Shown: one piece after another, positions 28,190 through 63,100 of the stretch
Position numbering within the stretch: the first letter of the stretch is position 1
Layout of the letters: each line of letters opens with the position of its first letter
Assembly: GCA_951406725.2 (NCBI GenBank)
Contig: OX597814.1
Coordinates: 222,084,001 to 222,148,000, forward strand
Origin: Octopus vulgaris
Taxonomy: Eukaryota
DNA length: 64,000 nucleotides
Direction: 5' to 3'
Translations under genes and position numbers: made by a program
The notes under the pieces: model-generated
Told to the model about the DNA's origin: nothing
Databases searched by the model: none
The model's input: only the letters and a program-made list of their open reading frames with translations

Positions 28190-28399
28190 GCAGAAAGAAT
28201 TATAATACTTCGTAAATGTATTAACACTTGCCAAAAATTGCTTTGTGTAACTGTTCAGTAAGACGATTATTTTACAATAGACATTATGGAGGGAATTTCT
28301 CCTTTATGTTTAGATATTAAAGTCGGACGTTAAATCTCTATTCTGTTTCGTTATCTAAATGCTGAAAGGAGAAGAAATTAAGAATCAGACGTCACTTAC

Positions 28400-29077
28400 C
28401 ATTTATATCCATTACGTGTCTAGTCGTCTGAATGACTTGACTGACGAATTTTTCACTTTCAGCATATAGTGGAAATTTAGTTGGTTCGCCGTAAGCTGCA
28501 GTCAAAGATTTTTCCGAAGAAACTGGGGGTGTAGTAGCAGCTGATGTCGTCGATATTGATTTGGAGCGACTCATATTTTGTTGAGATGTCAAAAGTGTAT
28601 CAGGTAATCCCGAGGGAACAAACGTTGTAGTGTAGGGTACGTTATTCGAAGATACTGGTGGATTTTCGGTGATTTTCTCCTTTTGAAATGGTGATGCAGT
28701 TGTTCGGATGGTGGGGAAAATAAAACGATAGGTGGCATGGAAACCGCTTAACTCCACCCGTTCGTCTGATTTAAAAACAATTAACAGAACATTTGAAGTA
28801 GAAGCATAAGTTGCCGGTACTCTAGATCCGCACAGCGTGGCAATTCTTTCCGAATCGGTAGTTTCTCCGTCATAAACGTGTATGCTGTCCAGTCGGTTAT
28901 TGCACAATCCGAGACCATGATTCTCAAGCTCAATTTTCGTAAAACGTAAAGTAATATAAGCATGAATGGGGCCTTTGATGATCCACCTACAGTCAGTGTT
29001 TGCTGGGTAATTGTTTGGCCAGTTTGGAGTGGCGAATTCTCCGTTATTTTTCGTTAAGATTGCGTTGCAAGGCCACT
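28400..29077 (-). CDS. Exon encoding a complete CUB domain plus Ser/Thr/Pro-rich stalk
   Basis: tttcag acceptor and G|GTAAGT donor, phase 1-1, 678 nt; WPCNAILTKNNGEFATPNWPNNYPANTDCRWII..LDSIHVYDG..LCGS..STSNVLLIVFKSD..SGFHATY. Confidence 0.93.
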
Positions 29078-29969
29078 CTGAAATGAAAGGAAAAAAAACA
29101 TCATGACCAGAATATTCAATATAATTTAAAATAATCTATGTTTTTCAACATTATTTACATATCTGTAAATAAAATTCTGCCATATACATAGCCAAGTCAG
29201 ATATAACTATTATTTAAGACATAAATAAATAAAAATTAAGAAAGAAAGAAAGAAAGAAATAAAGAAGGAAAGAAATATAAAATTACGTGCTAATATAGGT
29301 TCTTATAGTTTATACATAAACACATGTATTCATACATAATACATACGCTGTGTTTGTACACACAAGCATATGTGTGCGTTTGAGCGTAAGTATGCATAAC
29401 TTTTGCATTGCACACAATTAATCATGCAGGTATGCATTTCTATAGGTATTTCGTTGTGGTAACATCGCACACCATGCTATGATACCACTAGAGAGTTTAT
29501 CTATATGTAGTAATTCAAGAAAGGAGACACAGAGCCTACATTTTTCTTGCCTTATCTCAGAATTTTTTTTTCCACAATCTGTATTCCCAATACCCAATGG
29601 CTAACGAAACATTATAAAATTACACTCCGTCTCTCGACTAACCGGGTATGAGAATAATACAAGATTAAAAACATGGAAAAATCGATACTATTATGCAAGG
29701 AACATAGAAACAGTTAAGCAATCCTAACTCGGTTATACAAAATTATACTAAAAGATATATAAAACAAATCAACCGATAAATCGCAAGCCAACGAGGAGAG
29801 CTGTATATGGTCACTCGACCTGGTAGAAACAACAATCAAATCTTTCACAACCATTCATACGAATATGTCTCATATTCGCATGAGGCGATTTTGATTTGGA
29901 TATAGAAAGAATGGGAAAATAACGGATGGAACATGTTTGGTCAGATGCTTATAAGAGTGTTTTTTAGTG

Positions 29970-60414: not shown

Positions 60415-61862
60415 TTGTTGTTAAAGCCGGTTCGCATGTTCTACTATCGATCTATGATGTAAAAATGAGGAAAAAATATATGGATCAAACGAAAATGCCA
60501 TTTATCATGCATTAGAATATGCATCATTCGCATTCCCAACAAATGAATTGAAGCTTTATGACTGTGTAATATAATTAAAACGAAAGCGAAAAATATCTCG
60601 GTAAACAAATAACCGGATTTTGAGCAGCGCGAACATCCTTTTAACAATATACTTCTCAGACGCATTCCACGAAAGTTTGAACATGGCTTACTGCGGAGAC
60701 AAATTACGCAATTGTTTGCACATTTTAGTCTTGCTAGACGTTCAATAGATCTTAATTTGCAATGGTTGTTTTTATTCAAATTTAATTTGAAGGTATTCGT
60801 TCGTTTCCGTCTTTTTCTTTTCTTTTTTTTTTTTGTGTGTGGACTCTATATAATTTTCTTCTTGTAATCATTTTATAGAAGCCGAAATGGTTATTTCTAT
60901 ATTTCGTGTTACTGACCTGTTATATAAATTCCTGGTATGATTAAAAAATTATCTTATATCATGAAACACGATGGCAAACGTGGTTAGAATATGTAGATCA
61001 TTGGGAAAATGTCGAATAGTGAAATTGAGGTTTTGATTATTTCATGCCTTACATAATCTTTACTTTGGAATATAGTTTTAATCAATTAGGTAAACTACCC
61101 TCTTCGTTTATAAAATGAATGCGATTAGAAACCTAACTCAAATATCAGAATCTCGTGACTTAATAATTTGAATAAATGTATTAAATGCCTTTATTAATGC
61201 TTCTTAGCCCTCGGTTGTCATTGATTCATTACACTTATGATTAAAGGCATTCCATCTGATATTATTTATATTTGAAACAAAATGTTATCTGCGACCATAC
61301 GATCAAACAGGTCTTTTCATGCTTTGAAAACTATTCCAGGGTAATGTAGACCTAGAGACATAGGAAGAAATGTGGTTGCTTCGGGTACAACCTGGGAGCT
61401 ACATGAGAGAACCTGTTCACAACACAATTGACAGTGTTACATCATTTTGAAAAGACGATGTTTATGCTATTATACATTTATGGCAGACATTTTATACGCA
61501 CATACACACTAACACACATGTGCATGTTCATATATGTGTTATGTATTTGTGTATTTGTGTATTTGTGTTCGTTTCTCTAGAATATCTCTATGAGTGTCTG
61601 TATACATACATGTATACATAAACACACGCACACACACACATATCGTAGTTTATCACTATTATTACTAGCATTCCTTGGAGTACTCTTATATTATGAAAAT
61701 AAAGTCTATTAACATGGAACGCGTAGATAGTGTCAAAGAAAGAGTTTTAAAGATAAATATAGCAGAATTGTATTATTGCTAAAGTGACACAGAATAAATA
61801 AATAAATAAATATATATATATATATATAATAGTAAAAAATAAATAAATAAATAAATAAATAA

Positions 61863-61914
<52 letters not shown>

Positions 61915-62373
61915 TGTAATTCCCTTACGGGACTGTCACGTTAAGTTGACAGTACACAACCACTCTATCGCTCCACCACCGCTCATGTCTCTTTGAGACA
62001 TTTAGAAATTTAATATTTCTGATTAAGGTAACCAGTGAATAGATTTCACTGTAAATATATATATTTGTGAAGGCTAGACAGGTACCTCAATCAGCTGATC
62101 TCACTATCCTGGGCTGATGACGGGTTAAGACCCAGAAACATGCATGTCCTCAGGTGTGAATCTTGGTTGGTAGGAGTGCTTGCCTCCCATTCACAAATAT
62201 AAGGACACAGGAAATGTGTCAAAGCCGACAGGAAGCGTCGATGCTTCCTAGGGCTAAACAGCGGTGATGTAATTCCCATACGGGACTGTCACGTTATGTT
62301 GGCTGTATACAACCACTCTATCGCTCCATCAGCGCTCATGTCTCTTTGAGACATTTAGAAAGTTAATATTTCT
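61915..62373 (+). mobile_element. Putative non-LTR retrozyme (353-nt monomer plus 106-nt terminal redundancy)
   Basis: Direct repeat 61915-62020 / 62268-62373; central hammerhead; many hairpins; (TA)n on both flanks. Confidence 0.78.
62108..62154 (+). ncRNA. Type I hammerhead ribozyme
   Basis: CCTGGG-CTGATGA-c-GGGT(taag)ACCC-a-GAAA-CATGCATG-TC-CTCAGG; GUC cleavage after 62148. Confidence 0.88.
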
Positions 62374-62659
62374 AATATATATATATGTATATCTATATAT
62401 ATATGTGTGTGTGTCTGTGTCTCTCTGTCTGTCTGTCTCTGTGTGTAATAAGTTTGTGCTCCCGCACGGCCGCAGTCAAATGACTGAAACAAGTAAAAGA
62501 ATGATAGAAGAAAATAATATATATATTCATAGATACGCGCGCGCGCGCGCGTGTGTGTACATGGACATACCGGAACATAGGAGGAAGTAGTTCGATTAGT
62601 AGAAAGACATAGATGTGTTTACATGTGTATGTGTGTGCGTGTGTGAGTGTGTACAAATA

Positions 62660-62693
<34 letters not shown>

Positions 62694-62703
62694 CGTATTA
62701 TGT

Positions 62704-63100
62704 AGGCGCAGGAGTGGCTGTGTGGTAAGTAGCTTGCTAACCAACCTCATGGTTTCGGGTTCAGTCCCACTGCGTGGTATCTTGGGCAAGTGTCTTCTGC
62801 TATAGCCCCGGGCCGACCAATGCTTTGTGAGTGGATTTGGTAGACGGAAACTGAAAGAAGCCTGTCGTATATATGTATATATATATATGTATGTGTGTCT
62901 GTGTTTGTCCCCCTAGCATTGCTTGACAACCGATGCTGGTGTGTTTACGTCCCCGTCAGCAAGCGGTTCGGCAAAAAGAGACCGATAGAATAAGTACTGG
63001 GCTTGCAAAAAGAATAAGTCCCGGGCTCGAGTTGCTCGACTAAAGGCGGTGCTCCAGCATGGCCGCAGTCAAATGACTGAAACAAGTTAAAGAGTAAAAG
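62704..63100 (+). mobile_element. tRNA-derived SINE family B, full length
   Basis: A-box tggctgtgtggt, B-box ggttcagtccc, internal TA/TG tract, conserved tail. Confidence 0.9.

Follow-up and report, generated by a model that had tools for sequence, protein, structure and literature searches.

The 353-nt element described here probably represents a dispersed non-coding family with a U1/U2-type promoter and a predicted circular RNA, which is moved in trans by Penelope RT/GIY-YIG proteins and inserts into AT-rich DNA. One copy lies in the window, the whole 64,000-nt stretch of Octopus vulgaris DNA that was analyzed. The original prediction had read this copy as a retrozyme-like element with an intact hammerhead core; the U1/U2-type promoter core and a LINE target site go beyond that reading.

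The unit in the window (43.6% GC) was numbered from window position 61915 as unit position 1, with cleavage predicted after unit position 234 (Table 1). The terminal repeats were aligned by BLAST at an offset of 353 with 100 of 109 positions identical, and a second comparison yielded 112 nt at 91% identity; the predicted 353-nt spacing was correct, and the predicted repeat length of 106 nt was slightly short. Both flanks read as (TA)n, as had been noted. The unit folded at -122 kcal/mol (z = -6.27; 0 of 100 shuffles equally good), and the hairpins named earlier recurred in this predicted fold. The longest ATG frames reached 20 codons (plus strand) and 62 codons (minus strand), in agreement with the absence of coding potential first proposed. 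No Penelope or LINE protein match, and hence no RT plus GIY-YIG ORF, was found in the window. The window copy is an ordinary, probably terminal, family member, a 1.3-unit copy with a promoter and a single hammerhead that could produce a linear RNA and would make no circle alone. The nearest sign of a host gene was a 247-codon open frame at 28395-29135 (minus strand) with a CUB-domain-like exon, recognized by eye. A SINE-like repeat at 62700-63100, with a partial second copy of its 3' end at 62456-62508 (593-nt spacing), contained no tRNA detectable by ARAGORN.

Table 1. Features of the window copy and its flanks
Feature	Position	Strand	Basis
AT-rich simple repeat, (TAAA)n then (TA)n; insertion target, 5' side	61794..61912	.	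sequence
Terminal redundancy, copy 1; unit positions ~351 to 106	61912..62020	+	BLAST
PSE-like U1/U2-type promoter core, ~57 nt before putative start	62030..62041	+	matrix; absent from U6 loci
AT-rich box, ~25-35 nt before putative start; similarly spaced AT-rich stretch in U1/U2 promoters	62052..62066	+	by eye
Predicted long rod-like stem, hammerhead at tip	62060..62200	+	folding
Putative transcription start; empty in window copy	62087..62106	+	duplicated around LINE inserts in other copies
Type I hammerhead; predicted cleavage after C62148	62108..62154	+	sequence, covariation
Hairpins, most abundant part of family; candidate Penelope-protein binding region	62201..62264	+	folding, copies
Terminal redundancy, copy 2; contains both fixed 3' end sites of family	62265..62373	+	BLAST, copy ends
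Short 3' end site A, unit positions 45-60; putative reverse-transcription start	62312..62327	+	copy ends
Long 3' end site B, unit positions 100-113; putative reverse-transcription start; window copy's own end	62367..62376	+	copy ends
(TA)n, insertion target, 3' side	62377..62410	.	sequence

The proposed type I hammerhead with its GUC site was complete when every part was re-read in the sequence. Helix I pairs CCTGGG (62108-62113) with CTCAGG (62149-62154) with one G.U, and is followed by the core CTGATGA (62114-62120), a C62121.A62134 mismatch, helix II GGGT/ACCC and GAAA; helix III is the palindrome ACATGCATGT, and GTC then precedes the predicted cleavage after 62148. Rfam reported no hammerhead family in the window, even at E up to 10, and a loose hammerhead regular expression alone matched the window 10 times, so it is covariation and copy number, more than the motif itself, that support a hammerhead. 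In an alignment of 24 variants drawn from a pairing-filtered list, all 6 helix I pairs and the 3 core pairs of helix II showed changes on both sides, and 0 of 500 shuffles matched the score. Because that list was pre-filtered, the fairer test is that of 28 distinct helix I combinations with no pairing filter, in which 4.25 of 5 positions were paired compared to 3.24 after shuffling (maximum 3.82 in 5000 shuffles). The exact hammerhead of the window was the commonest variant in the sampled loci (36 occurrences, overlapping loci counted). The base of helix II was usually mismatched, with C.A in 25 of 43 cores, so that the mismatch is a family-wide feature and not decay. In 31 of 43 cores, helix III formed a perfect palindrome 6, 8 or 10 nt long, an arrangement predicted to favor dimer folding and reported for dimer-active hammerheads in the available part of PMC4209133. 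The canonical core was replaced by CCGATGA or TTGATAA in older subfamilies, whose hammerheads may be weak. The pattern of variation identifies a covarying type I hammerhead whose core and base pairs are conserved. According to the portions available of the two sources, 8 of 9 dimers assayed in a frog study gave no cleavage (10.64898/2026.07.22.740005), and insertion in vitro did not require the Penelope hammerhead (PMC11167929).

The genome (2.8 Gb, 227 contigs) contained at least 62 unit matches, counted from 40 scored of 2295 candidates, and a 3'-proximal 29-mer had 581 exact matches, with 0 for the reversed control. Subfamilies diverged down to 60% identity. The core of the window's subfamily was conserved in 61 exact genomic matches, which, with the covarying fold, bore out the retrozyme-type assignment. 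Copies greater than unit length, as proposed for the window locus, were confirmed there and in 28 distinct copies containing repeated parts. Tandem multimers, which the original prediction suggested seeking genome-wide, were found as rare dimers and one trimer and not as long arrays: at least 8 dimer matches in 7 loci, a lower bound since the search used an exact-match pattern. The trimer had three hammerheads and three promoter cores. Head-to-tail units with two or more hammerheads were accordingly a feature of the family only, the window copy having one, and none of the 61 exact cores lay at unit spacing on one strand. The units of one dimer (L403) differed at 1-2 of ~210 compared positions, which fits a recent insertion or a local duplication. 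The trimer (L406) was flanked by a 14-nt direct repeat, recognized by eye; therefore, some insertions leave a target duplication.

The LINE site of the retrozyme was considered as a transcription start because the LINE junction in U2 genes lies a few nucleotides before +1. A TCAGT-type core was present at -55 to -60 in 57 of 60 U1/U2 loci; one exception was mis-anchored, and the two misses were U2 genes whose +1 was occupied by a LINE end. Using a matrix built from 10 representative U1/U2 sites (one mis-anchored), the best site fell at -53 to -61 in seven of seven retrozyme promoters, which are homologous and not independent, with start-site anchors chosen by eye within a few nucleotides. The site listed in Table 1 was the top-ranked matrix site of the unit, with 7.7 bits (0.04% of window positions score this high); the older promoters scored 11-13 bits. 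Two other LINE targets with CCAAT/TATA promoters had low matrix scores. The unit is thus predicted to have an snRNA-type promoter, with a U1/U2 core about 55-60 nt before the putative start. None of 30 U6 loci had the core at the U1/U2 position, and a U6-type promoter for the unit was not supported. Many U6 copies (L438-L467) were retrocopies fused directly to SINE sequence, and the likely true U6 genes had an octamer-like motif and a TATA box.

Several copies contained a 1.6-1.8-kb insert immediately 5' of the hammerhead, with a GT-rich 5' end, a single ORF with a CCHC knuckle and ZCCHC3-like features, and an AATAAAG end. Target duplications of 10-21 bp flanked 19 of 20 full inserts, the exception being L077, an ORF1-only LINE whose head is the first ~20 nt of U1 snRNA and whose duplication was not clear. 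A Penelope ORF as the identity of the 1.7-kb insert was rejected on the knuckle, the ZCCHC3-like features, the poly(A) signal and the insert's own duplication. Two-ORF LINEs with APE, RT and zf-RVT were present in the genome, and the best named relative of one of the genome's LINE proteins was in Argonauta hians (63% identity). The invading LINE combined a CCHC ORF1, an APE/RT/zf-RVT ORF2, a duplication and a target preference, all Tx1-like features; by domain layout and target habit, the invaders were assigned to L1/Tx1-type LINEs and their ORF1-only derivatives. ORF1-only "half-L1" elements exist. There were 14078 candidates of the ORF1-only LINE genome-wide, and young tandem arrays of it (L124, L125, L127-L129, L137-L139) had a ~1.8 kb period and frames of 450-480 codons.

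For the ORF1-only element, 92 distinct 3' ends were recorded; 43 of them were followed by a hammerhead core 20-39 nt behind and ~21 led into another insert. The insertion point lay ~55 nt behind the promoter core, and one lineage was also found at U2 +1. At 30 loci of one RT-encoding lineage, whose query was picked because it was seated on a retrozyme, the LINE led into a hammerhead unit (19), a full U2 (3), a U2 duplication (1) or elsewhere (7). One full LINE lay within a unit with both flanks present (L244). The junctions were of 41 types, combining 19 LINE ends and 36 distinct 13-nt flanks, and point to many separate insertion events. Only 3 of 30 loci of zf-RVT LINEs at large led into a hammerhead, so the targeting is not universal. 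The LINE family also inserts ~25-30 nt behind the TATA box of a CCAAT-box repeat (L100, L135-L137, L284), and such insertion behind CCAAT/TATA promoters without an snRNA core (L100, L135, L284) counts against the explanation that we prefer. No Rfam family match was found in 20 loci with other LINE targets. Further LINE targets (L323, L324, L325, L326) comprised another hammerhead-like unit, a short hairpin RNA-like sequence, and a repeat in which one motif resembles a 5' splice site and another a hammerhead.

It is very improbable that the promoter likeness is a chance or hairpin artifact, that transcription is instead TATA-type, Pol III or read-through, and that the LINEs pick a loose T-rich-then-ATC sequence. 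The core is short (~7 informative nt), forms one arm of the CAGTGAA/TTCACTG inverted repeat and scores low in the window copy; the lack of a run of four T in the unit also fits that reading, as does the ATC common to the junctions in U2 and several other LINE targets. However, the core position equals that in U1/U2 genes within a few nucleotides in all seven promoters, the older of which score well; U6 loci use a different promoter; and the LINE targets are diverse, as the 36 flanks indicate. A newt retrozyme with a reported snRNA promoter, cited in the available text of PMC2220036, also argues for a U1/U2-type promoter.

The ends of the copies were surveyed at 70 loci taken in genome order among the 29-mer matches, skipping five already-sampled places; 63 were retained after seven overlapping loci were dropped. 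The 3' ends fell at site A or site B and not at the cleavage site, the 5' ends were variable, and the targets were mostly AT-rich DNA. There were 38 head-to-head pairs, comprising 34 A+B, no A+A, no B+B and 4 with one unclassifiable end, and the unpaired arms were 13 A, 14 B and 1 other. The two fixed sites rule out freely permuted ends, for which the original prediction had suggested a search. The genome contained intact Penelope families encoding RT and GIY-YIG. In a young 775-aa family there were two 3' ends, and all four pairs that could be read were, by eye, short plus long; in another autonomous family, the one readable pair was also short plus long. Because the autonomous Penelope elements here pair their ends likewise, "retrozyme" and "non-autonomous Penelope element" can name one thing, and the non-autonomous Penelope pLTR first listed as the alternative becomes the likely route of movement. 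The family has the marks of such elements: two fixed 3' ends, a tail at one end, head-to-head inversions and AT-rich targets. From the strict pairing of short with long ends, a single Penelope complex would be expected to prime the two ends of a break at different RNA sites. In the available part of PMC11167929, purified Penelope protein started reverse transcription at two internal sites, extended both strands and cleaved AT-rich DNA; a one-end-only tail, inverted arms and AT-rich targets are given as Penelope traits in the accessible portions of PMC8557442 and PMC3846280. As far as its available text goes, a 2026 preprint, which also took in four invertebrates, describes vertebrate retrozymes as non-autonomous Penelope derivatives, arguing the origin from co-occurrence and phylogeny and leaving the mechanism to be shown (10.64898/2026.07.22.740005). 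LINE-filled units were amplified after insertion with Penelope-type ends. The 775-aa family (L214, L408-L437) was very young: many of its copies were identical, its tandem period was 4271 nt, a second ORF lay upstream, and the core of its hammerhead read CCGAAGA. In other Penelope families (L207, a 781-aa family; L483; L493), the 3' region as scanned yielded no hammerhead.

No pseudo-LTR shared with the unit was found in 140 Penelope loci of at least four families; the search found only retrozymes situated in the AT-rich tails of these loci. A family sharing an 8-nt terminus with site B was rejected as partner, the match being too short to count, and a Penelope fragment that met a copy in head-to-head orientation (L155) was not taken as evidence of co-insertion since it lacked its own 3' end. 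It is very improbable that the unit is the pseudo-LTR of an autonomous Penelope element and that the copies are the 5'-truncated ends of this element, although the integration signature equals that of Penelope elements, thousands of Penelope candidates in the genome are unscored, and 24 of the 57 retrozyme families of Xenopus correspond to known transposons, almost always to Penelope termini, in the part of 10.64898/2026.07.22.740005 available. Upstream of the long copies, by contrast, lay another unit and no ORF, so that copies are not always attached to Penelope ORFs, in line with the original prediction. The only common upstream cargo was the LINE, with its own poly(A) signal and duplication; Penelope fragments occurred at just four distinct loci of 130 scanned, apparently as neighbors or targets; and the Penelope pseudo-LTRs here had CCAAT/TATA promoters without the snRNA core.

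For the non-autonomous family, the templates were judged from arm lengths and repeated parts. The median arm was 156 nt, and most arms had no promoter, those longer than ~300 nt regaining it; 12 of 99 arms passed the putative start, and 7 of these retained the promoter core. None of 29 arms that reached the hammerhead stopped at the cleavage site, and a cut linear monomer as the main template was therefore not supported. Repeated parts within a copy differed at 204 of 3291 sites (6.2%; 28 copies) compared to 8.8% between copies, and the units of one multimer shared private variants. The arm lengths and the within-copy similarity fit a circle or an uncut multimer. The two repeats of the window copy differed at three family-polymorphic sites, a difference not expected from a single circle copied 1.3 times, and two multimers were chimeric, L405 switching variant at the cleavage site and L406 inside a unit; hence more than one template is sometimes used. 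Contigs of four presumed-RNA runs covered the unit, showing neither strand, ends nor circle.

The same element, promoter and Penelope mobilization could operate with no circle, a reading that we consider unlikely, in which the templates would be linear uncut multimers or read-through transcripts between which the RT jumps, and the hammerhead would trim RNA or be a leftover. The two chimeric multimers agree with it, as does a copy that begins at the putative start site and runs 1.8 units (L004), and uncut RNA was the main in vitro substrate of the Penelope protein in the available text of PMC11167929. On the other hand, the absence of arms ending at the cleavage site speaks against cut linear templates, and source multimers are rare, yet the start site is passed by 12 arms. 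Hammerhead pairing is kept even across the most diverged subfamilies, and circles have been demonstrated in mussel, coral and axolotl retrozymes (PMC7229834, available portion; Cervera and de la Pena 2020).

The explanation that we prefer, and consider probable, runs in five steps. Pol II would start at ~62087-62089, some 55 nt behind the promoter core. Rare two- or three-unit transcripts would be cut at each hammerhead, as suggested by the fold and by known retrozymes, and the cut units closed into circles that include the promoter sequence. A Penelope protein, probably as a dimer, would then cut AT-rich DNA, and the break ends would be primed separately, one at site A and one at B, ~55 nt further; the two cDNAs would join head to head, or one arm would be lost, which would account for the observed end signature. 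Most arms would be short and promoter-less, as observed, with the rare ones above ~300 nt recovering the promoter. LINEs and ORF1-only derivatives, whose insertions were observed, would by a putative rule enter the start site of units and of U2 genes; their likely gain would be a borrowed promoter, and the filled 2-kb units would also be copied by the Penelope route. The upstream position of the promoter would explain why greater-than-unit copies matter, and an snRNA promoter gives a reason for both the hammerhead and such copies, because it would otherwise be lost on retrotransposition. A bolder reading, possible but less likely, is a three-tier parasite. In it, a circular hammerhead RNA would have captured the host U1/U2 promoter, and the circle would carry that promoter through Penelope reverse transcription; LINEs would find start sites, by bound factors or open DNA and not by sequence, and then travel inside the retrozyme as 2-kb protein-coding hammerhead units.

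This family supplies copy-level evidence on the transcription and copying of animal retrozymes, and the LINEs at +1 of U2 and in unrelated hammerhead units make a Tx1-type targeting rule testable. The class of element is known; the promoter match, the strict end pairing and the shared LINE targeting of U2 and retrozymes were not found in the literature searched, which, supplements aside, also yielded no cephalopod retrozyme and no LINE targeting retrozymes. The available part of an octopus repeat annotation described active L1-Tx1 and Penelope families and no ribozyme, and neither "ribozyme" nor "retrozyme" was found in that part of its main text (PMC13282606).

The family resembles metazoan non-LTR retrozymes, as described in the available text of PMC7229834, in being non-coding and highly self-paired, with 150-450 nt, less than 50% GC and a hammerhead of type I; axolotl HHR_Amex2 likewise has a mismatch at the helix II base. 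In contrast to those retrozymes, most of its copies are dispersed and 5'-truncated, and their 3' ends are fixed at two sites; the longest multimer is a trimer compared to up to 62-mers, and it is known from genomic sequence, whereas the mussel, coral and axolotl retrozymes have demonstrated circles. It also has a promoter and a LINE target site, neither of which that text describes for metazoan retrozymes.

Newt satellite 2 was reportedly studied by Coats, Zhang and Epstein in 1994, the work said to be the source of the snRNA-promoter report. It is likewise a hammerhead repeat, of ~330 nt, with an snRNA-type Pol II promoter (cited in the available part of PMC2220036), but it is a vertebrate tandem satellite, whereas the present family is invertebrate and dispersed with Penelope-type ends. 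With EN+ Penelope elements and their derivatives, so far as the accessible portions of PMC11167929, PMC8557442, PMC3846280 and 10.64898/2026.07.22.740005 describe them, the family shares AT-rich targets, 5' truncation, inverted arms, a tail at one end only and a hammerhead between the promoter and the 3' end; it differs in having no ORF, a tail of ~55 nt instead of 30-40 nt, and a predicted snRNA-type promoter instead of CCAAT/TATA. The invading LINEs are like target-specific LINEs of the Tx1 clade (Keno in U2, Tx1 in Tx1D, Tx1-Mar and SINEU), which have two ORFs with APE, RT and zf-RVT in the available text of PMC4494074; tandem insertion in multicopy RNA genes or transposons is shared, and dependence on target transcription has been proposed there. 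Unlike Keno and Tx1 as described in that text, one lineage here was found at U2 +1, in several diverged hammerhead units and at other promoters, and 1.6-1.8-kb ORF1-only derivatives insert likewise.
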